DNA of 64,000 nucleotides from contig JASGKE010000002.1 in assembly GCA_047600885.1 (NCBI GenBank), positions 47,233 through 111,232 on the forward strand, read 5' to 3'. Source of the stretch: Pseudoxanthomonas sp. (GTDB lineage Bacteria; Pseudomonadota; Gammaproteobacteria; Xanthomonadales; Xanthomonadaceae). How positions within the stretch are numbered: the stretch's first letter is position 1; every line of letters starts with the position of its first letter. The position numbers and the translations under genes are program-made. Shown here one piece after another: positions 1 through 34,026 of this stretch. The notes under the pieces were generated by a model. That model was not told where the DNA came from and searched no databases. It worked only from the letters and a program-made list of their open reading frames with translations.

Positions 1-1216
1 GCTGGCGCTGCAGTGGGCCGGTGCCGCGCTGATAGGCGCGCGGGAGCGCTTTCTGTTCCGGATCCGTCGGTGCCGGATAGTCGGCCAGGTAGCGGGCGAC
101 ATAACCGGCCGAACCGTGCAGTCCCTGTTCTTCGCCACCCCACAGGCCCAGCCGGATCGTGCGGCGCGGCTTCACGCCGATCGCCTTGAGGATGCGCATG
201 GCCTCCATCATCACGACCACGCCGGCACCGTTGTCGCTGGCGCCGGTGCCGGTGTGCCACGAGTCGAGGTGCGCGCCGATCATCACCACCTCGCCCGCCT
301 TGCCGCCCGTGCCCGGGATCTCGGCGAAGGTGTTGGTGGCCGGCAGGTCCTGCTCACTGGTGAACCGGGAGTCGACGTCGATACGCAGGCGCACCGGCTG
401 TTTGCCCTGCACCGCGCGCACCAGCGGGTTGTAGTGCTCGGTGGGCAGGACCAGCTCGGTCACGCCGACCGGCTCGTCCGCCTTGCGCGCGCCGCCGCCG
501 GTGGCGCGGATGATGCCGTTGTCCCATGAGCTCAGCGACAGCGTCGCCAGCACGCCTTCTTCGGCGAGGAAGGTATTCAGCGCCTTGTTCAGGGCCTGGC
601 GCTTGCGGTACTCGTCCAGACGCTTCTCCTGCGCATCGGGCGCGGCGTCCGCGGCGATCGGGAAGGTCTGCAGTTCGCCCAGGTCGGATTCGCTGTAGCG
701 GCGGAAGTCGGCCTTGTCGGCGGGCTTGTACGCGCGCGCCTCGTCCACCAGGACGATCTTGCCGCGCAGCTTGCCGCGCTGCTTTTCAATGTCGGCGAGG
801 GTCTTGAATGAGGCCAGGACCACCTCGCCTTCCACCGGGCCATCCGTGCCCCGCGTCCATGCCTTCGGCAGCGCGTGCACGGGCGCCTGTCGCGGCGAGA
901 CCATCTCCACGCGCGAGGATTCGAACGCCCAACCCCGACCGAAGGCCGGATCGAAGACCTCCTCGTGCACATCGGACAGGCCCCAGCCGGACAGCTTGCC
1001 GCGCGCCCAGGCGCTGGCGCGCGTGTAATTGGGCGAACTCGTCAGGCGCGGGCCGACGGTTTCGGTGAGCTCCTTCAGGTTGGCCGCGGCCTGCGAGCGG
1101 TTGAACGCCTCGTGCCGGATCTTCGCGACCACGTCCAGGTCCACCGGCTCGGTGGCCACTGCTTCGCCCGCCATCACACACATCGCCACGCAGGCGACGA
1201 CCATCAGCCGCTTCAT
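1..1216 (-). CDS. M28 family metallo-aminopeptidase, probably secreted; C-terminal part lies left of the window
   Basis: My own minus-strand translation from the ATG at 1216 gives MKRLMVVACVAMCVMAGEAVATEP... (signal-like N-terminus), then ...GAHLDSWHTGTGASDNGAGVVVMMEAMRIL... and ...LWGGEEQGLHGS..., which are typical M28 zinc-ligand motifs. The frame stays open to position 1, which explains why it is missing from the ORF track. Confidence 0.8.
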   Translation of the reverse strand, partial: MKRLMVVACVAMCVMAGEAVATEPVDLDVVAKIRHEAFNRSQAAANLKELTETVGPRLTSSPNYTRASAWARGKLSGWGLSDVHEEVFDPAFGRGWAFESSRVEMVSPRQAPVHALPKAWTRGTDGPVEGEVVLASFKTLADIEKQRGKLRGKIVLVDEARAYKPADKADFRRYSESDLGELQTFPIAADAAPDAQEKRLDEYRKRQALNKALNTFLAEEGVLATLSLSSWDNGIIRATGGGARKADEPVGVTELVLPTEHYNPLVRAVQGKQPVRLRIDVDSRFTSEQDLPATNTFAEIPGTGGKAGEVVMIGAHLDSWHTGTGASDNGAGVVVMMEAMRILKAIGVKPRRTIRLGLWGGEEQGLHGSAGYVARYLADYPAPTDPEQKALPRAYQRGTGPLQRQ

Positions 1217-1335
1217 CCAACCCCCTGATTGATAAGGATCCCCATCCCTGTGGTTCCGGGCATGCGCCAGGGACCGCCCCGCAGTGTCCCTGCTGGGCCA
1301 CGCGAGGACCCCTGCCAATGGTCATGGTCGGCCGG

Positions 1336-1375
1336 CCGGAAACGCGAAGGCCCGGGATGCGATCCCGGGCCTTCG
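1336..1375 (-). terminator. Stem-loop terminator candidate downstream of the porin gene
   Basis: Perfect 12-bp inverted repeat cgaaggcccggg / cccgggccttcg (1345-1356 / 1364-1375) with a 7-nt loop. On the minus strand it is followed by CGUUUCC, which is a short U tract. Confidence 0.5.
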
Positions 1376-1408
1376 TGCGGCGCGAACGGCGCGGATGCGC
1401 CGCGCGGC

Positions 1409-2707
1409 TTACCAGGCGAACTGCGTGCGCAGCGCGTACTGGGCGGTCTCGTCGCCGGTGACTTCGTTGTCGCCCTGCGTGTAGTTGAACATGAAGCGCA
1501 GGTTCGGATTGACGTAGTAGTTCACGCCGAGGATCCAGCTGGTGACTTCGCGGTTCAGCGTTTCGTTCTCGACATAGTCGTAACGGCCGGTCAGCTCCCA
1601 CAGGCCCTTGTCGGCGACCTTCGGCGAACCGAACACGCCGGTGGCGCCCTTGTACGGCTTGTGGCCGCCGTTGAGCATGAAGCTGCCTTGCACGTAGTAC
1701 GTGGTCACGTCCTGGTCGCGGCCCAGCGGCTGGCCGAAGGTCGCATCGGCGTACTCGGCCTGGAAGAAGGCCGGGCCGAACGAACCGGCGGCTTCCACCG
1801 CCATCACGTCGACGGTGTTGCGGCTGGCGCCGGTGGTGGTGGCGATGACCTGCGACGGACCGCGGCGGCCGGCGTAGTTCGACGTGGCGACCAGGTCGGC
1901 CGAACCCAGGTTCTGGTCTTCGAAGCTGTACCAGGCACCGAAGTGCAGCGTGCTGTTGTCGTTGTTGATCGGCGCGTAGGTCACGCGACCGGCAGCGCCG
2001 ACGCCTTCGTTACGCGTGCCGGCGGCACCGCGCAGGTTGAACACGCTCAGGCCCGCGGTGTAGTTCTCGCCGGCGCGCAGGTAGCCCACGCCCTGCTGGA
2101 ACTGGCGGCCGTTGAACAGGCCGGTCGCGGAGGCGAACGGACGCTCCATGGTCAGCAGTTCGTTGGAGCTGGTCAGCTCTTCCATCGCGCGGTAGGGCTT
2201 GAAGTGACCGATGGTGAACTTGCCGCCCAGCGCCGACTTGGCGATGTAGACGTCGCGGAAGCCGTCCAGGCCGCCACCGGCGCCGAAATCGTTCTCCATC
2301 TTGTATTCCCAGCCGTAGGCCTTGCCCTGCAGGGTCAGGCGCGCGCGGCGGAATTCGGTGGTGCCGGTGGTGCTGGCCAGGTCGCGATCGAACGCGTAGG
2401 TGTCGAACTGGATGCGGCCGCCGACGCTGGCTTCGAACTTGCCGTCGGCCGAGGTGATCTTCAGGCCGCCCTTGGTATCGACCTTCGGCGAACCGGTGTT
2501 GAGCTTGTCCAGCTGGGAGGCGGTGTCGATGTTGACGTCGGACTGCGCGTCGCTGCGCTCTTCCAGCTCGGCCACCTTGGCCGACAGCGCTTCCAGCTGC
2601 GCCTTCAGTTCGGCGATCGTCTGATCGCGGGAGTCGGCGGCGGACGCCGAGAAGCTGGTGCTGCCCATGGCGACGGCGAGCGCGGCGGCCAGGAGGGAAT
2701 AACGCAT
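1409..2707 (-). CDS. oprP: Phosphate-selective porin, OprO/OprP family
   Basis: ORF 1409..2791. I prefer the internal start MRYSLLAAALAVAMGSTSFSASA (signal peptide). It is followed by a coiled-coil-like segment (TIAELKAQLEALSAKVAELEE) and a beta-barrel ending ...ALRTQFAW. The gene is divergent from the pst operon and has a Pho-box-like repeat upstream. Confidence 0.85.
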   Translation of the reverse strand: MRYSLLAAALAVAMGSTSFSASAADSRDQTIAELKAQLEALSAKVAELEERSDAQSDVNIDTASQLDKLNTGSPKVDTKGGLKITSADGKFEASVGGRIQFDTYAFDRDLASTTGTTEFRRARLTLQGKAYGWEYKMENDFGAGGGLDGFRDVYIAKSALGGKFTIGHFKPYRAMEELTSSNELLTMERPFASATGLFNGRQFQQGVGYLRAGENYTAGLSVFNLRGAAGTRNEGVGAAGRVTYAPINNDNSTLHFGAWYSFEDQNLGSADLVATSNYAGRRGPSQVIATTTGASRNTVDVMAVEAAGSFGPAFFQAEYADATFGQPLGRDQDVTTYYVQGSFMLNGGHKPYKGATGVFGSPKVADKGLWELTGRYDYVENETLNREVTSWILGVNYYVNPNLRFMFNYTQGDNEVTGDETAQYALRTQFAW

Positions 2708-26163: not shown

Positions 26164-26519
26164 TGGTCCGGCACCGCCAGCCCCTGCTGGCGGAAGAAGC
26201 TGAGCTGGTCGAAGTAGCCGCGCTGAAACACGATGCGGCCGTCACGCACCTGGAAGAAGCCACACCCGCGCAGCCCCAGCGGATCGCGCCACGCGAGGAC
26301 GGCCCACTCGCCGTCCTCGAGGATCTGCTCCACCTCGCACACCATCGTGGCGCGCGCGAACTCGGTGCGGAACAGCGAGGTGATCGCATCGCGGCCGTGC
26401 AACGGATCGGTCACCACCTGGTGGTTGACCGCATCCTCCGCATACAGCGCCGCGAGCCCATCGACATCCGCGGCGTTGAAGCGGCGGACCCATTCCTTCA
26501 CCACGTCGGACGGCGTCAC
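26151..26519 (-). CDS. SnoaL-like / NTF2-fold protein
   Basis: GTG at 26519 overlapping the asnB stop (GTGA). The product reads VTPSDVVKEWVRRFNAADVDGLAALYAEDAVNHQ...WAVLAWRDPLGLRGCGFFQVRDGRIVFQRGYFD. The longer ORF version (to 27056) would run through asnB and was rejected. Confidence 0.7.
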   Translation of the reverse strand: MTPSDVVKEWVRRFNAADVDGLAALYAEDAVNHQVVTDPLHGRDAITSLFRTEFARATMVCEVEQILEDGEWAVLAWRDPLGLRGCGFFQVRDGRIVFQRGYFDQLSFFRQQGLAVPDHYLG

Positions 26520-28219
26520 GTCGCCGTGTCCTGCAACGCGGACGCGTGCACGCCGGCGACGGCACGGCCAGACGGATCGGCCATCTTCGCGAAGCTCGCA
26601 TCCCAGGCGATCGCCGCCGGCGACGAACAGGCGATCGACTTGCCGCCCGGCACCGTCTCGGCGCAGGCCTGCCCCGGATAGTGCTGCTCGAACAGCGTGC
26701 GGTAGAAGTAGGCCTCTTTGGTCTGCGGCGGATTGACCGGGAAACGCTTGTCGGCGGCAGCGAGTTCGCGATCGCTGACCTGCGCTTCGGCATGCGCTTT
26801 CAGGCCGTCGATCCAGCCGTAGCCGACGCCGTCGCTGAACTGCTCCTTCTGCCGCCACAGGATCGACTCCGGCAGGTAGCCGTCGAAGGCTTCGCGCAGC
26901 ACGCCCTTCTCCATCCGCTGCGCGCCGACGTGGGTCTTGTCGATCATCTTGTGCGCGGCATCCATCTTCATGGCGACGTCGAGGAACTCGACATCGAGGA
27001 ACGGCACGCGCGGCTCCACGCCCCAGGCCATCATCGACTTGTTGGCGCGCAGGCAATCGTAGTTGTGCAGCGCGTCCAGCTTGCGCACCAGTTCTTCGTG
27101 GAACTCGCGCGCGTTCGGCGCCTTGTGGAAGTAGAGATAGCCGCCGAAGATCTCGTCGCTGCCCTCGCCCGACAGCACCATCTTGACGCCCATGGCCTTG
27201 ATCCGCCGCGCGAGCAGGTACATCGGCGTGGACGCCCGGATGGTGGTGACGTCGTAGGTCTCGATGTGGCGGATCACCTCGGGGATCGCGTCAAGACCCT
27301 CCTGGAAGGTGTAGGTGAAGCCGTGGTGCACGGTGCCCAGCGCCTTCGCCGCGACCTCGGCCGCCGCCAAGTCCGGCGAGCCCTCAAGGCCGATGGCGAA
27401 GGAGTGCAGGCGCGGCCACCAGGCCTCCGTCTTGTCGTTGTCCTCGATGCGGTGGCGTGCATAGCGCGCGGCGACCGCGGCCACCAGCGAGGAATCCAGC
27501 CCGCCGGACAGCAGCACGCCATACGGCACGTCGGTCATCAGCTGGCGATGCACGGCGCGCTCGAACGCGTCGCGGAGTTCGTCTTTCGACACCGCCACGC
27601 CCTCTACGGCGCTGTAGTCGCGCCAGGGCTTCTCGTAGTACTTCACCAGCGCGCGCGTAGCGGTGTCGTAGTAGTGGCCCGGCGGGAACTGCGCCACGTC
27701 GGCGCAGATCGGCGCCAGCGCCTTCATTTCGGAGGCCACGCACAGGCGGCCTTCGCGGTCGTGCCCCCAGTATAGCGGACACACCCCGATCGGATCGCGC
27801 GCGATCAGTGCACGCCCGGCGGCCTTGTCCCACAGGGCGAAGGCGAAGATGCCGTTGAGGCGATTGAGGAACGACACCGGATCGTCTTCGCGGTACAGCG
27901 CGTTGATGACCTCGCAGTCCGAGCCTGTCTGGAAGGCGTAATCCTGCGCGAGTTCGCCTTTCAGTTCGCGATGGTTGTAGATCTCGCCATTGACGGCCAA
28001 GATCAGGTCGCCGTCGGCCGAACGCAATGGCTGCGAGCCGCCGGCGGGATCGACGATGGCCAGCCGCTCGTGCACCAGGATCGCGCCCTCGTCGTGGTAG
28101 ACGCCGCTCCAATCCGGGCCGCGGTGGCGCTGCTTCTGGGACAGCTCCAGCGATTGCCGTCGCAGGGCCGCAATGTCGTCGCCGGGCTGCAGCCCGAAGA
28201 TGCCGAAGATGGAACACAT
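26516..28219 (-). CDS. asnB: Asparagine synthase B (glutamine-hydrolysing)
   Basis: Start MCSIFGIFG (N-terminal nucleophile Cys2) at 28219, preceded by AGGAG. The PP-loop LLSGGLDSSLVAA is present and the C-terminal AsnB region is conserved. Confidence 0.93.
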   Translation of the reverse strand: MCSIFGIFGLQPGDDIAALRRQSLELSQKQRHRGPDWSGVYHDEGAILVHERLAIVDPAGGSQPLRSADGDLILAVNGEIYNHRELKGELAQDYAFQTGSDCEVINALYREDDPVSFLNRLNGIFAFALWDKAAGRALIARDPIGVCPLYWGHDREGRLCVASEMKALAPICADVAQFPPGHYYDTATRALVKYYEKPWRDYSAVEGVAVSKDELRDAFERAVHRQLMTDVPYGVLLSGGLDSSLVAAVAARYARHRIEDNDKTEAWWPRLHSFAIGLEGSPDLAAAEVAAKALGTVHHGFTYTFQEGLDAIPEVIRHIETYDVTTIRASTPMYLLARRIKAMGVKMVLSGEGSDEIFGGYLYFHKAPNAREFHEELVRKLDALHNYDCLRANKSMMAWGVEPRVPFLDVEFLDVAMKMDAAHKMIDKTHVGAQRMEKGVLREAFDGYLPESILWRQKEQFSDGVGYGWIDGLKAHAEAQVSDRELAAADKRFPVNPPQTKEAYFYRTLFEQHYPGQACAETVPGGKSIACSSPAAIAWDASFAKMADPSGRAVAGVHASALQDTAT

Positions 28220-28254
28220 GGGTGGAAACTCCTGGTGGGGTTCGGAATCAGGGG

Positions 28255-28293
28255 CCGGAAACGAAGAAACCCGCATCTTGCGATGCGGGTTTC
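28255..28293 (-). terminator. Rho-independent terminator/attenuator in the asnB leader
   Basis: The minus strand reads gaaacccgcatc-gcaa-gatgcgggtttc followed by ttcgtttcc. The element lies about 35-75 nt upstream of the asnB ATG and about 25 nt downstream of the leader-ORF stop. Confidence 0.7.
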
Positions 28294-28318
28294 TGGTATC
28301 CGGCAGATCTTTCTTTGC

Positions 28319-28447
28319 CTAGTCGCAGAGCCGCACCGCCCGCGTCCCGTTGTTCGGGCGCAGGTTGTTGCGGTTGTTATTGATGGCGGTGCGGCAGGGC
28401 ATGGGCCGACCGTAACCGGTCCGGGCCGGGGCGCGCAACTGTTTCAT
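28319..28447 (-). CDS. Candidate Asn-rich leader peptide of asnB (42 aa; an alternative internal start gives 27 aa)
   Basis: Minus-strand ORF MKQLRAPARTGYGRPMPCRTAINNNRNNLRPNNGTRAVRLCD*. Seven Asn codons fall within 11 codons (28349-28381), enclosed by the 11-bp inverted repeat GCCGCACCGCC / GGCGGUGCGGC (28385-28395 / 28330-28340). The Shine-Dalgarno is weak. Confidence 0.45.
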   Translation of the reverse strand: MKQLRAPARTGYGRPMPCRTAINNNRNNLRPNNGTRAVRLCD

Positions 28448-28473
28448 CCGTAAGGGAACGGCGGGGCCCACGG

Positions 28474-29616
28474 TCAGCCTGCAGGCTGGGTCAACATCAA
28501 GCGCTGCACCAGCGCCTGGTACAGGCCCGGTAGCGCCTCGAGGTCGGCGACGCGGATGTTCTCGTCGACCTTGTGGATGCTGGCATTGACCGGCCCGACC
28601 TCGATGCACTCCGCGCCCAAGGGGGCGATGAAGCGTGCATCGGAGGTGCCGCCTGCCGTGCTTTCTTCCGGCGGCGCACCCGCGAACTCGCCCAGCACCG
28701 CGCGCGCGGTGGCCCGCAGGTGCCCCTCCGGCGTGTAGAACGGCTCGCCACCGCGCAACCAGCGGATGCTGTAGTCCAGCCCATGCTTGCGGAAGATGCC
28801 TTCGATCTCCTGCTCCAAGCGCTCCGCCGTCCACGAGGGATTGAAGCGCAGGTTGAACACCACCTGCAGTTCGCCGGGAATGACGTTGCTCGCGCCCGTG
28901 CCGGCATGGATGTTGGAAATCTGCAAACTGGTCGGCGGGAAGGTTTCGTATCCGTCATCCCACTGGCGGGCGGCGAGTTCGTCCAGCGCCGGCAACGCCT
29001 TGTGGATCGGGTTGAGCGCCTTGTGCGGGTAAGCGACGTGGCCCTGCACGCCATGCACGTCCAGCGTGCCGGTCAGCGTGCCGCGACGGCCGACCCGCAG
29101 CAGGTCGCCCAGCGTTTCCTTCGACGATGGCTCACCGGTGATGCACCAGTCGATCCGCTGGCCGCGTTCGCGGAACAGCGCGGCGACCTTCTTCACGCCA
29201 TCGTGGGCGTCGCCTTCTTCATCCGAGGTCACCAGCAGCGCCACCGTCCCCGGATGGTCGGGATGCGCATCGACGAAGCGCTCCAGCGCGATCGTGCACG
29301 CGGCCACGCTGCACTTCATGTCCGCCGTGCCGCGTCCGTACAGCACGCCGTCGCGCACCGTGGGCACGAACGGATCGCTGGTCCACGCGGACAACGGGCC
29401 CGGCGGCACCACGTCGGTATGTCCCAGCAGCACCAGCACCGGCGCACCGCTGCCATGGGTCGCCCACAGGTTGTCGGTATCGCCGAAACGCAGGTGCTCG
29501 CAGTGGAAGCCCCACTGGCTCAGGCGCGTCGCCAGCACCTGCTGGCACCCGGCATCATCCGGCGTCACCGAGTGGCGACGGATCAGTTCGCTGGAGAGTT
29601 CGACGACATCGCTCAC
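28474..29616 (-). CDS. dapE: Succinyl-diaminopimelate desuccinylase
   Basis: 380-aa M20-family ORF containing [11 protein letters not shown] and [12 protein letters not shown], in a dap gene context. Confidence 0.9.
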
Positions 29617-29975
29617 TTTCCGGCTCCGAACAGCTTCTTGAAGCCATTGTCGCTGAAGCCCTGTGAAAAGCCCGCCACGTCATCGACTACCACCGGACGC
29701 CGGATCAGCTGCGGGTATTCCTTCAACAGCAGCTTCCATTCCGCGTCGGAACCGGGCGACTTGCGGTTCTCGGGCAGCTGGCGCCACGTGGTCGACGATT
29801 TGTTGATCAGCGCATCCCAGCCGCCCACCTTGTCCGCCCAATCCTTCAGCGTTTCCGGTGCCTGCCGGTTGTCGCGGTAATCGACGAACGTGTACGCCAC
29901 GCCGAAGCGGTCGAGCCACTTCGTTGCCTTCTTGCAGGTGTCGCAATTCTTGAGTCCGTAGAGCGTCGCCGTCAT
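29613..29975 (-). CDS. ArsC/Spx-family reductase-like protein (YffB type)
   Basis: [21 protein letters not shown]... (CxxC-like N-terminal motif), 120 aa. It overlaps the dapE start by 4 nt. Confidence 0.8.
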
Positions 29976-30048
29976 GATCCGATTGTTCGCAGTGTGCCGC
30001 CGACGATGTTACCGCAGAGCCACGACTGTCACCCGTAAGACGCACCGG

Positions 30049-30453
30049 TCAGTGCGGACACATGGCAGTGGTCGCGCCTTGCAGGCGACCAAGGTCGTCG
30101 AACTGGAGCCCGATGGCGCTAACGCGCTCCACGTCATCGCGCTCCATGCAGACCATCTTGAGACGCACTGCATTGGGGTTGTCGGCAGCGCGCCGGGCAG
30201 CATCGACGATGGACTCACGATCAGCGCCATCTACACCTGCCGCCTGCACCGCCGCTATCAGGGGTACCAACTGGCGACGGGAGATGTCCCAAGCCACTTG
30301 ATCGGGATAGCAGTCAGGATTGGACGAGGTTGCTGCATTCAACAAGCCCTCGCCCTCGATGACTTTTTGGTCCCGACCGGTGGCCCACCAATGCGCGTTG
30401 GTTCCGATCAGCAGGAACAGCAGCACGTATATGAGAACGTTGCGACTCGACAT
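30049..30453 (-). CDS. Hypothetical membrane-anchored or secreted protein (orphan, atypical composition)
   Basis: 134-aa ORF with the N-terminal hydrophobic segment NVLIYVLLFLLIGTNA and 4 Cys. I recognise no family. Local GC and GC3 are visibly lower than in the flanking genes. Confidence 0.55.
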   Translation of the reverse strand: MSSRNVLIYVLLFLLIGTNAHWWATGRDQKVIEGEGLLNAATSSNPDCYPDQVAWDISRRQLVPLIAAVQAAGVDGADRESIVDAARRAADNPNAVRLKMVCMERDDVERVSAIGLQFDDLGRLQGATTAMCPH

Positions 30454-30535
30454 TGGATTTGCCTCACGTCAATACCTATAGAACGATATTGGAATCGACC
30501 CCGCCCCACGCCAGACCACTGCGCCGCGACTGCGA

Positions 30536-31390
30536 TCAATCCGCCAGACCGCGCAGCAGTTCGTTGACGCTGGTCTTGCTGCGGGTCTTCTCGTCGACCT
30601 GCTTGACGATCACCGCGCAGTACAGCGAATGCGAACCGTCGGCCGCCGGCAGCGAGCCGGATACCACCACGCTGCCCGGCGGCACGTAGCCGTAGGTGAT
30701 CTCTTTCGTCGCACGGTTGTAGATGCGGGTGGACTGGCCGATGAACACGCCCATGCCGATGACGCTGTGGTGGCCGACCACCACGCCTTCGACGACTTCG
30801 GAGCGCGCACCGATGAAGCAGTGGTCCTCGATGATCGTCGGGCTGGCCTGCAGCGGTTCGAGCACGCCGCCGATGCCGGCGCCGCCGGACAGATGGCAGT
30901 GCTTGCCGATTTGGGCACACGAACCCACCGTCGCCCACGTATCGACCATCGTGCCTTCACCGACGTGGGCACCGATGTTGACGAAGCTCGGCATCAACAC
31001 CACGTCCTTGCCGAAATAGCTGCCGCGGCGGGCGATCGCGCCCGGCACGACGCGCACGCCGAGCTTGCGGAAGTCGTTCTCGTCGAAGGCGCCGAAACGC
31101 GCCTCGACTTTGTCCCAGAACGGCGCGGGATAGGCTTCGACCAGTTCCATCTCGTTGACGCGGAAGTACAGCAGCACCGCTTTCTTCAGCCACTCGTTGA
31201 CCTTCCAGCCGCCTTTGCCATCGGGCTCGGCCACGCGCAGCTTGCCCGCTTCCAGGCCTTCGATGGCCTGTTCGACGGCGGTGCGGGTGGAGCCTTCGAT
31301 CTCGGCCGGCGTCAGCTCGGCACGACGCTCGAACGCGCTCTCGATGGTGGACTTCAGTTCTTCGGTCTTGGTGGCTTTGCGGGTCATCAA
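30536..31390 (-). CDS. dapD: 2,3,4,5-tetrahydropyridine-2,6-dicarboxylate N-succinyltransferase
   Basis: 284-aa ORF with left-handed beta-helix hexapeptide repeats and a typical DapD N-terminal helical domain ([28 protein letters not shown]). Confidence 0.9.
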
Positions 31391-31410
31391 ACGTCCTGCT
31401 GGGTTCTTGC

Positions 31411-34026
31411 TCAGGTGGGGGTATCGAGCCCGGCGCGCAGCGCGTCGCGCAACGCATCCTGCTGGGCGGTATCGGTGAGGGGCTGATCGTGTTCGTCGGT
31501 GATCTGGAACACGTCCTCGGCGCGTTCGCCGAAGGTGGCGATGCGCGCGTCGTGCACGCGCAGGCGCTGGCGACGCAGCACCTGGGCGACGTCGGACAGC
31601 AGGCCGGGGCGGTCGGGCGCGACCAGGCCGAGGATCGTGCGACGGCCGTCCGGCGTGGCGCCGAACTCGATCCGCGGCGCGAACCGGAAATGCTTCAACT
31701 GCCGCGGGACCGCGCGTCGCGACGTGCGCACGCTGTCCAGCGGCCGCGCCAGCGCCTCGCCCAATCCCTGCTCGATGTCGGCCGGATCGCGTGGCGCATA
31801 AGCGTCGGCGGGCAGCACTTCAAAGGTATCGAAGATCGCGCCCTGCGGCCCGACCAGCACGCGCGCCTGGTGGATGGCGAAGCCCATCCGGTCCAGCGTG
31901 GCGAGGATGGCGGCGAACAGACCGTCGCGGTCCGGCGAATGGACGAAGACCTCCATCGCATCGGCGTCGTCCGCGATCCGGCGCGCCCGCACGCGTGTCT
32001 CGCCCAGCGTCGCACCGCGGATCGCATGCGCCTGCCAGGCCAGTTGTTCGGGACGGAAGCGCAGGAAGCTCTCCTCGGGCATCGTCGCGAACAATGCGTC
32101 GGCCTGCGCTGCGGTCATGCCCTGCACTTCCAGCAGCGCGCGTACGCTGCCGCGCGCTTCGAAGAGGCGTTCGTCCACCGCCACCGGATTCTCCAGCCCT
32201 TCGCGCAACACGCGGCGCGCCGCGAAGTAGAGATCGGCGAGTAGCCGATCCTTCCACGCGTTCCAGAGTTTCGGACTGGTGCCGGCGATGTCGGCGCAGG
32301 TGAGCAGGTAGAGATAGTCCAGCCGCTCGCGGTCCTTCACCAGCGCGGCGAAGGCGTGGATCACGTCCGGATCGGCGATGTCCTGCTTCTGTGCGGTGAC
32401 CGACATGCGCAGGTGCTGCTCGACCAGCCAGGCCACGAGTTCGGTGTCCGACTCGCTGAGCGCATGCGCGGCACAGAACTCGCGCGCATCGACGGCGCCG
32501 AGTTCGGAATGGTCGCCCCCGCGACCCTTGGCGATGTCGTGGAAGAGCCCCGCCAGCAACAGCAGTTCCGGCTTGCGCAGGCGCGGCCACACCTCGTGCG
32601 CGATCGAGAAGCGCTCGTCGGCGCGGCCGGCGGCGAAGGCGGCGATGTTCCGCAGCACCATCAAGGTGTGCTGGTCGACCGTATAAACGTGGAAGAGGTC
32701 GAACTGCATCCGCCCCGACACACGGGCGAACGCGGGGATCCACTGGCCGAGCACGCCCAGCCGGGCCATGCGGGTGAGCGTTTCCACCGCACGCGGCCCG
32801 CGCAGCAACGCCATGAAGGCATCGCGCTGCGCGCGCGTGGCGTCGGGATAGGCGAGCAGCTTCGGCAGCGCCTCGGCCAGCGCGCGCGCAGTGCGCGAGT
32901 GCAGCCCGCGAACCTGCGGGTTCGCGGCCCACGCCGCAAACAGGGCGAAAACCTGAGCCGCGTCGCCGGCCGGCCACGTCGCGTCGCGCGCGGCCAGATA
33001 GCCGCGGCGCAGGGCGAAGTGCGCGTCCAGCGGTTCGGCCAGCGCCTCGCCGTCGAACTGCTCTTCGAAGCGCTGCAGCAGGCGGTCGCTGATCCGGCGC
33101 ACGATGGCCGCGCTGCGATAGAAACCCTGCATCATCTTCTCGACGCCGAGGTTCTCCGCGTCGTCGGCGAAACCCAGGCGCTGGGCCAGGGTCTTCTGGT
33201 AGTCGAAGCGCAGGCGTTCTTCAGCACGCGCAGCGACCCGGTGCAGGCCGTAGCGCAACCGGCCCAGTGCGCGCCGCTCGCGCGCCAGCGCCGCGGCTTC
33301 GTCCTGGCCCAGGTGCCCCATGCCGACCAGCGGCTCGAGATCGCGCACGCCGAACGTGCGCAGCGCCATCCAGCCCAGCGTGTGCAGGTCGCGCAGGCCG
33401 CCGGGGCCGTCCTTGATGTTGGGTTCGAGGTTGTCGGAGGTGTCGCCGAAACGCGCGTGGCGGATGCGCAGTTCCTCGCGCTTGGCCACGAAGAAATCGC
33501 GCGGCGGCCAGACCCGCGCCGGACCGATCGCATCGATCAGCAGACCTTCGTCGACCGGCTCGCCGACGATCAGACGCTCTTCGATCAACGCGGTCAGCAC
33601 GGTCTGGTCGGCGGCCGCGGCGGCCGTGCATTCGGCCGCCGAGCGCACGCTGTGGCTGATCGGCAGGCCGGCATCCCACAGCGTCGCGAAGAAGCGCGCC
33701 ACCGCATCGTGGTGGGTCTGCTGGACCTCGCTGCCGGCCAGCACCAGCACGTCGACGTCCGATTGCGGGAACAGTTCGCCGCGTCCGTAGCCGCCCACGG
33801 CGAACAGCGCCATCGGCGCGTGTTCGGGAATGCAGCGTAACCAGGCGTCCTTCAGCAGATGATCGACGGCGCGTGCGCGCAAGGCCAGGATGCGGTCCAT
33901 GCCGTCGTCCTGGTCGAACCGCTTGTCCAGGCGGGCGTCCGTATGGCCCAGCGAGGCGCGTGGCCGCCGCCGACCAGGCAGCGTCATCGACGACGTCCGG
34001 GCCGATGTCCGGCAGCCGCGTCGCAT
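31411..34026 (-). CDS. glnD: Bifunctional [protein-PII] uridylyltransferase/uridylyl-removing enzyme
   Basis: 871-aa ORF with a nucleotidyltransferase motif ([21 protein letters not shown]), an HD domain ([19 protein letters not shown]) and two C-terminal ACT domains. The start is uncertain (34026 or 33987). Confidence 0.9.

Follow-up and report, generated by a model that had tools for sequence, protein, structure and literature searches.

We analyzed a 64,000-nucleotide (nt) stretch of DNA from Pseudoxanthomonas sp. (contig JASGKE010000002.1, positions 47,233 to 111,232; hereafter the window; 67% G+C), in which a 254-nt intergenic gap on the minus strand separates the stop codon of dapE (28476..28474) from the ATG of asnB (28219). 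The asnB gene (26516..28233, minus strand) is preceded by an AGGAG Shine-Dalgarno sequence at 28233..28229, and its stop codon ends at 26516. Its product scored 877 bits against the NCBIfam model NF006949 (asparagine synthase B; cut-off 499), and its homologs in an AsnB homology search, which returned close relatives only, are named asparagine synthase B by their sources. The gap folds with −111.8 kcal/mol, compared with −87.6 ± 4.3 kcal/mol for shuffled sequences (z = −5.6; none of 200 shuffles was as good). A first-pass annotation had described in this gap an Asn-rich open reading frame (ORF), an 11-bp inverted repeat, and a strong hairpin with a U-rich tail, and all of these are present on the minus strand. 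We consider it likely from the sequence and its comparison among relatives that the element is a ribosome-mediated (leader-peptide) transcription attenuator, which ties the transcription of asnB to the supply of charged tRNA-Asn.

Asparagine codons and terminator upstream of asnB

For the comparison, a genome scan with AsnB was performed on one genome per species and the best 80 loci were taken, of which 78 have enough upstream sequence and two are too short. An Asn-rich short ORF precedes asnB at 77 of the 78 loci, and the counts below refer to these 77. The leader-bearing loci are all labeled Lysobacteraceae or Lysobacterales; the record labels are Pseudoxanthomonas, Xanthomonas, Stenotrophomonas, Thermomonas, Luteimonas, Lysobacter, and Alterluteimonas, together with several metagenome-assembled genomes labeled only Proteobacteria or Pseudomonadota.

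The conserved leader ORF of the window, MPCRTAINNNRNNLRPNNGTRAVRLCD, consists of 27 codons and a TAG stop codon (28402..28319, minus strand). Its orthologs have 20–44 codons (median 31) and always start with ATG. The first-pass annotation had placed the start at the ATG at 28447, which gives a 42-aa reading (MKQLRAPARTGYGRPMPCRTAINNNRNNLRPNNGTRAVRLCD, then a stop codon) with seven Asn in 11 codons. This start had to be revised. The ATG at 28447 occurs only in the closest relatives of the window, and the MKQLR codons of the longer reading coincide with the conserved −35 region of a predicted promoter (AAACAGTTGCGC), whereas the ATG at 28402 is the conserved start everywhere.

Seven AAY codons are found within 11 codons of the leader (28381..28349, minus strand; first bases at 28381, 28378, 28375, 28369, 28366, 28354, and 28351). 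When about 128,000 twelve-codon windows were scanned in the six frames of the 64-kb window, the leader was the sole site with at least five Asn per 12 codons. Each leader has 3–9 Asn codons (median 7), and Asn accounts for 21% of leader codons compared with 1.8% of asnB codons. The leaders contain 486 AAY but only 3 AAR triplets in frame, and the other two frames together contain 10 AAY. AAC and AAT are freely exchanged among the leaders, with AAT representing 49% of the leader Asn codons versus 14% in asnB. Since AAY is almost confined to one frame and AAC and AAT are interchangeable, these triplets act as codons rather than as a motif in the nucleotide sequence.

The N-terminal part of the leader, ahead of the Asn run, varies widely in length and is not conserved in sequence. 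The 3′ half is conserved at the nucleotide level, synonymous sites included, and encodes a conserved C-terminal RARPMRVCD motif with P to A and M to V or L changes. Arg is the second commonest leader residue (18.8% versus 7.4% in AsnB). Since most of the Arg codons (CGC, CGG, and CGU) are located within the paired segments described below, the richness in Arg is probably a structural by-product. The conserved R-A-R-P near the C-terminus recalls the RAGP/RAPP arrest motifs. Five leader peptides compared with NCBIfam and Pfam matched no family, and the leader ORF is seldom called and never named in a collection of 15 billion proteins.

An intrinsic terminator hairpin, AGAAACCCGCATC-GCAA-GATGCGGGTTTCT (28294..28265, minus strand), with a 13-bp stem, a GCAA loop, and a stability of −22.7 kcal/mol, begins 24 nt after the leader stop codon and ends 45 nt ahead of the asnB ATG. 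It is followed by the U-rich tail UCGUUUCC (28264..28257), which together with the end of the stem reads UUUCUUCGUUU; relatives mostly have UUUUUUU(C)GU. A hairpin with a U-tract is present at all 77 loci (−14.7 to −27.9 kcal/mol), 16–34 nt past the leader stop codon and 29–106 nt ahead of the asnB ATG. In alignment A1, 96% of the terminator cells are paired and 8 of the 14 pairs show compensatory change. RNAalifold applied to the whole alignment found the terminator independently.

The element is linked to asnB. The dapE gene is directly upstream at about half of the loci, and elsewhere it is 0.4–2.1 kb off or absent from the 2.5 kb examined. Promoter, leader, and terminator stay beside asnB even where dapE is distant or absent, and the element travels with asnB and not with dapE. 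Since the leader is kept at loci without an adjacent dapE, the hairpin is more than a mere dapE terminator.

Competing pairings and the position of the ribosome

The end of the leader ORF can pair with the 5′ arm of the terminator. Segment 2, GGCGGUGCGGCUCUG (28340..28326, minus strand), ends 4 nt ahead of the leader stop codon and contains the 3′ arm of the first (1:2) stem (28340..28330), with which the 5′ strand of the antiterminator (28339..28326) overlaps. Segment 3, CAGAAACCCGCAUCGC (28295..28280, minus strand), supplies the terminator with its 5′ arm and the antiterminator with its 3′ strand. The in-frame stop codon is always located between the two segments. In the window, the conserved antiterminator is formed by GCGGUGCGGcUCUG (28339..28326) and CAGAaaCCCGCAUCGC (28295..28280) with −19.4 kcal/mol. 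In most relatives the terminator loop and 3′ arm recur in the R-P-M-R-V codons (CGGCCGAUGCGGGUC), and the ORF end thus rivals segment 4 for segment 3.

When segment 4 was removed, the minimum free energy (MFE) fold at 62 of the 77 loci joined the ORF end to the terminator 5′ arm. The core helix of the antiterminator is 93% paired, with a few compensatory cells in each of four pairs. The 2:3 duplexes formed within each locus averaged −22.2 kcal/mol, compared with −12.5 kcal/mol for controls taken as 45-nt windows of the asnB coding sequence of the same genome (3% of the controls were as good), and their mean z was −3.9 against shuffled sequences. The antiterminator partner of the same locus beats those for other terminator types at 68 of the 77 loci.

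The antiterminator drawn in the first-pass annotation, GACGCGGG:CCCGCAUC (28346..28339), exists as a pairing (−12.8 kcal/mol). However, it is weaker than the pairing of GCGGUGCGGcUCUG and is not conserved. The more general proposal of an Asn-codon leader, a terminator, and an antiterminator ahead of asnB had been made dependent on the conservation of the Asn run and the terminator in orthologous leaders and on a competitive alternative pairing, and it is supported by the present results. Conservation of the Asn run and the terminator extends to 77 of the 78 loci, the terminator shows the compensatory changes described above, and a rival antiterminator is available at most loci. In the window the 2:3 pairing (−19.4 kcal/mol) competes with the 3:4 pairing (−22.7 kcal/mol), and the truncated folds are antiterminated at 62 of the 77 loci.

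The first stem of the window is formed by segment 1, GCCGCACCGCC (28395..28385, minus strand), and GGCGGTGCGGC (28340..28330), which make a perfect 11-bp stem in the MFE fold (−26.8 kcal/mol, z = −4.8). Since this stem overlaps segment 2, it would work as an anti-antiterminator. The repeat noted in the first-pass annotation is thus perfect in the window, but it is specific to the clade of the window: close relatives carry a mismatch, few other clades have a strong 1:2 duplex, and Xanthomonas and Stenotrophomonas keep only a short CCGCA:UGCGG helix. In this helix an alternative and widely conserved segment 1, the CCGCA inside the N-R-N codons (28373..28369, minus strand), pairs the Arg codon of N-R-N-N with UGCGG of segment 2, and its cells are 94% paired (alignment columns 99–103 with 140–144). 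A further hairpin, P1 (UGCGCCCG-AACAA-CGGGaCGCG; 28362..28341, minus strand), carries the last two Asn codons in its loop region. Its equivalent at most loci, CUGCGCGCG-AAYAAU-CGUGCGCGG, has 76% of the cells paired and compensatory change in four pairs.

The effect of a ribosome on these pairings was mimicked by masking 28 nt around the A site. When the masked ribosome was placed on the Asn codons, the antiterminator formed at no fewer than half of the Asn positions at 73 of the 77 loci, and when it was placed on the stop codon, the antiterminator was abolished at 49 of the 77. In the window, the ribosome-free RNA gave the 1:2 stem and the terminator, a stall at Asn codons 1–5 gave the antiterminator, and a ribosome at the stop codon gave no antiterminator.

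Promoter, mechanism, and alternative explanations

A sigma-70-type promoter is predicted ahead of the leader. In the window, the −35 hexamer TTGCGC (28438..28433, minus strand) and the −10 hexamer TACGGT (28414..28409, minus strand) are followed by 6 nt (CGGCCC) and the leader ATG, and the −10 hexamer occupies positions −12 to −7 relative to the A of this ATG. A TTGxxx sequence 17–18 nt 5′ of a −10-like hexamer (nAnnnT) was found at 76 of the 77 loci, and the distance from nAnnnT to the in-frame ATG is 6–8 nt at 76 of the 77 (6 nt at 50, 7 nt at 22, and 8 nt at 4 loci). No Shine-Dalgarno sequence was apparent by eye ahead of the ATG in the leader sequences inspected. Since the conserved spacing puts the predicted +1 at or beside the A of the ATG, the leader mRNA is probably leaderless, judging from the promoter geometry; this probable leaderless translation had been missed in the first-pass annotation. 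At eight loci a divergent ABC1-kinase gene starts 121–163 nt upstream, and the leader's own promoter must therefore sit in that interval. For Xanthomonas campestris pv. vesicatoria, a leaderless form, in most cases with AUG as the start, was reported for 14% of the mRNAs (PMC3300014).

The same attenuator might operate on a transcript that is not leaderless, coming from dapE or another upstream promoter, with the leader translated from an internal AUG (28402 or 28447) that lacks a Shine-Dalgarno sequence. In the window and at about half of the loci, dapE is encoded on the same strand 39–90 nt upstream, and no terminator is predicted in the interval, so that read-through transcripts must exist, and Xanthomonads have been reported to have no clear Shine-Dalgarno consensus (PMC3300014). 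However, the ATG at 28447 is confined to the closest relatives and lies inside the conserved −35 region, the geometry of −35, −10, and ATG is kept at 76 of the 77 loci with ATG as the invariable start codon, and read-through is impossible at the eight loci with the divergent upstream gene. We thus regard a non-leaderless origin of the leader transcript as unlikely.

A repeated GTTGC motif (GTTGC-N4-G(C/A/T)AAC-N2-GTTGC) was observed 5′ of and overlapping the −35 hexamer, at 28460..28433 (minus strand) in the window and at −65 to −31 from the leader ATG at related loci such as L029, L060, and L057. An exact TTGC-N3–7-GCAA palindrome is present near the −35 hexamer at 28 of 76 loci, while the window retains only GAAACAGTTGC, and the repeat is absent from Lysobacter and Thermomonas-type loci. 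It could be an UP-like element or an operator to which a regulatory protein binds. The TTGC motif was not accepted as a sigma-54 element on inspection of the sequences, since the GG/GC spacing is unfit and the downstream TAnnnT is conserved.

In the attenuator with a leaderless leader, which we prefer, the promoter would start the RNA at or beside the AUG of the 27-codon leader, and translation would begin without a leader sequence. When asparagine is plentiful, the ribosome would pass the seven Asn codons and sit on or just past segment 2; alternatively, segment 2 would re-pair with segment 1 behind the ribosome. Segments 3 and 4 would then pair to form the terminator, which would halt transcription about 45 nt short of asnB. 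Under a shortage of Asn-tRNA, the ribosome would stall on the Asn codons, within or beside segment 1 and in the P1 loop, masking segment 1 and leaving segment 2 free. The free segment 2 would capture segment 3 once it is made, and the resulting antiterminator would block the terminator and allow RNA polymerase to enter asnB. Most likely, asnB would be switched on only under asparagine scarcity.

Several points weigh against this mechanism. We infer from sequence where transcription starts, that the leader is translated and asparagine is sensed, and in what kinetic order the RNA folds. In the mask model, which is simple, a ribosome at the stop codon leaves segment 2 uncovered at 28 of the 77 loci, namely those with a longer C-terminal extension (e.g., ...PMRDCDQG and the stop codon in Stenotrophomonas). 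The ribosome-free truncated leader thermodynamically favors the antiterminator at 62 of the 77 loci, and termination without translation would thus need kinetic trapping. Both weak points of the model would have to be explained by folding kinetics or by the 1:2 stem re-forming behind the ribosome. Segments 2 and 3 hardly vary, so that covariation gives the antiterminator modest support, and RNAalifold recovers the terminator only; the alternative helices were tested explicitly. The 1:2 pairing is not family-wide (mean z = −0.7 for the family), and the CCGCA:UGCGG helix is without compensatory change. The logic of the attenuator also presupposes asparaginyl-tRNA synthetase (AsnRS), without which the charging of tRNA-Asn cannot report free asparagine. 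Finally, control by diffusible signal factor (DSF) and Clp has been reported for asnB of Xanthomonas oryzae pv. oryzicola (Qian et al. 2013, cited in PMC13054055), which indicates that further regulatory layers exist.

The Asn-rich region might also be an untranslated structured 5′ leader, riboswitch-like or bound by a protein such as Hfq, with the AAY repeats serving as an (ARN)n-type binding motif and the bound factor controlling the terminator. The distal face of Hfq binds an A-R-N pattern, which AAYAAY runs fit, and the nucleotide-level conservation of the 3′ half of the ORF, including its synonymous sites, would suit a structured RNA. It is difficult to reconcile with an untranslated leader that the excess of AAY over AAR (486 versus 3) is found in one frame, namely that of an ATG whose distance from the promoter is fixed despite the variation in N-terminal length. 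Moreover, the in-frame stop codon is always positioned between segments 2 and 3, and no Rfam family matched. We consider this explanation very unlikely.

Even less probable is that the small ORF encodes a functional peptide, either a precursor of a lasso peptide or another ribosome-made peptide with post-translational modifications (RiPP) for an AsnB-like enzyme, or a regulatory peptide acting in trans. Lasso cyclases are AsnB homologs encoded beside short precursor genes (model NF033535), and the C-terminal RARPMRVCD of the leader is conserved. However, this conservation coincides with the RNA pairing segments, where the peptide itself varies (P to A, M to V or L), the N-terminus shows no conservation, and a terminator stands between the ORF and asnB. 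The enzyme is the housekeeping AsnB equivalog (877 bits versus the cut-off of 499 for NF006949) and reaches 122 bits with NF033535, whose cut-off is 525, and the lasso precursor was rejected on these scores. That the hairpin is a plain dapE terminator and the Asn-rich ORF a chance ORF, which would fit its being the first terminator 3′ of dapE in the window and the frequency of long spurious ORFs at 67% G+C, deserves almost no credence and was rejected as contradicted by the comparative data, since leader and terminator are kept with asnB where dapE is absent, 0.4–2.1 kb away, or replaced by a divergent gene, and since the Asn density is unique in the 64-kb window and the Asn run is conserved family-wide.

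The dapE gene itself (28474..29616, minus strand; TIGR01246, 535 bits versus a cut-off of 362) lies outside the element and is given as context only. No terminator belonging to dapE precedes the leader promoter in the window (28403..28476), and the attenuator hairpin is the first terminator 3′ of dapE. Thus, the attenuator probably also ends dapE transcripts, or dapE transcripts read into asnB. The gene order at 26516..34026 (minus strand) is glnD, dapD, an ArsC-family gene (PF03960), dapE, the leader, and asnB. Family models were checked for dapE, asnB, and the ArsC-family gene, and glnD and dapD were assigned by reading of their translations. The neighborhood combines nitrogen-status sensing, lysine/diaminopimelate synthesis, and asparagine synthesis. 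At loci L020, L024, L029, L042, L044, L049, L053, and L070, a 557-aa ABC1 atypical kinase-like gene (PF03109) lies between dapE and the leader on the opposite strand (at about 480..2180), and other loci carry different insertions of 0.4–2 kb at the dapE–leader junction.

The Asn leader was not found at two loci with a xanthomonad-like asnB, one of them full-length and labeled Sorangium and the other labeled Rhodopseudomonas. The AsnB proteins of these loci (L069, Sorangium sp. So ce1000 chromosome; L078, Rhodopseudomonas telluris) are 85% and 81% identical to that of the window, respectively, which suggests lateral transfer or contamination. L069 instead carries an AT-rich inverted repeat (AAATGAAA...TTTCATTT) ahead of asnB.

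Relation to known regulatory systems

The amino acids known to be sensed by leader-peptide attenuation are Trp, His, Leu, Thr/Ile, Phe, Ile/Val/Leu, and, recently, Cys. The remark in the first-pass annotation that Asn is absent from the well-described systems agrees with our searches of Rfam, NCBIfam, Pfam, and the literature. No family of Rfam 15 was assigned to the window (E-value mode) or to six related loci (gathering mode). The best match was Thr_leader (RF00506), which covered the terminator part only and scored 20.7 bits compared with a gathering threshold of 55, and the thresholds for the Trp, His, Leu, and Phe leaders and the T-box were not reached. No description of an Asn leader or attenuator, or of an asnB leader, was found in the full-text literature, including PMC2965389, PMC4833913, PMC3300014, PMC13054055, and PMC3771888, although subscription papers are mostly outside the coverage and an older prediction is possible. 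Since no prior description was found in Rfam, Pfam, NCBIfam, or the full-text searches, Asn probably represents a new amino-acid specificity for classical ribosome-mediated attenuation, as far as can be judged from sequence.

Like the classical enterobacterial attenuators (trpL, hisL, leuL, thrL, pheL, and ilvL/ivbL), the element has a short ORF in which codons for the end product abound, an intrinsic terminator ahead of the first structural gene, pairings (1:2, 2:3, and 3:4) that overlap one another, and a stop codon beside segment 2. The leu leader uses rare CUA codons, and the enrichment of the minor AAT codon here resembles this usage. In contrast to the classical systems, asparagine would be the regulatory amino acid, asnB would be the single regulated gene, segment 1 is poorly conserved, and the leader has no apparent Shine-Dalgarno sequence and, with the predicted +1 at the ATG, would have no 5′ untranslated region (UTR). 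There is also no similarity in sequence or structure to the Rfam models.

Leaderless leader peptides are known from the trp, leu, and ilv attenuators of Corynebacterium glutamicum. The polycysteine upstream ORFs of mycobacteria are likewise described as leaderless short-ORF attenuators of Actinobacteria (bioRxiv 10.1101/834739). As in these systems, the regulatory ORF would open the transcript at its 5′ end, and its cognate codons would sense the supply for the downstream biosynthetic gene. The present element differs in belonging to Gammaproteobacteria (Lysobacteraceae), in its amino acid, Asn, and in having a canonical intrinsic terminator and antiterminator, and its leaderless status is read from the promoter geometry.

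In Firmicutes, Asn-specific T-box leaders precede asnS and asnA. The two systems are alike in coupling Asn genes to the charging of tRNA-Asn by a choice between terminator and antiterminator, but T-boxes bind uncharged tRNA directly without translation, and no T-box match was obtained here with Rfam. E. coli controls asnA through the protein regulator AsnC. Its asnB encodes the same enzyme (NF006949 equivalog), whereas neither an Asn-rich ORF nor a leader terminator of this kind was found in the upstream region of asnB in E. coli K-12. A C/A-rich tract (AACAAGCAAACACAACAAGCAACAAAUACC) was seen there directly 5′ of the Shine-Dalgarno sequence (L081, 2690..2740).

A fuller reading combines these features. 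The element would be the first described Asn-specific ribosome-mediated attenuator and would act on leaderless RNA in a family of Gram-negative bacteria; the ribosome would load at the 5′ end without a UTR, the enrichment of the minor AAU codon would tune the sensitivity, and the terminator would also end dapE transcripts where dapE is upstream. We regard this combination as about as likely as not. As a more speculative extension, by analogy with arrest peptides of the RAGP/RAPP type, the conserved R-A-R-P motif might slow the ribosome on segment 2 and secure termination where the stop codon lies further downstream.

The unannotated ORF and its RNA element could enter Rfam and annotation pipelines. 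With its promoter, the element measures about 180 bp and would serve reporters and synthetic biology as a small natural sensor of how far tRNA-Asn is charged, and if the leaderless start is true, it would be a clean proteobacterial system for the coupling of 70S initiation at a 5′ AUG to RNA polymerase. If the proposed mechanism is true, asparagine joins the short list of amino acids sensed by leader attenuation. A link of asnB to the virulence of Xanthomonas is cited in PMC13054055. The mechanism, if true, would explain how asnB expression follows demand in a family with major plant pathogens (Xanthomonas) and the opportunistic human pathogen Stenotrophomonas maltophilia among its members.

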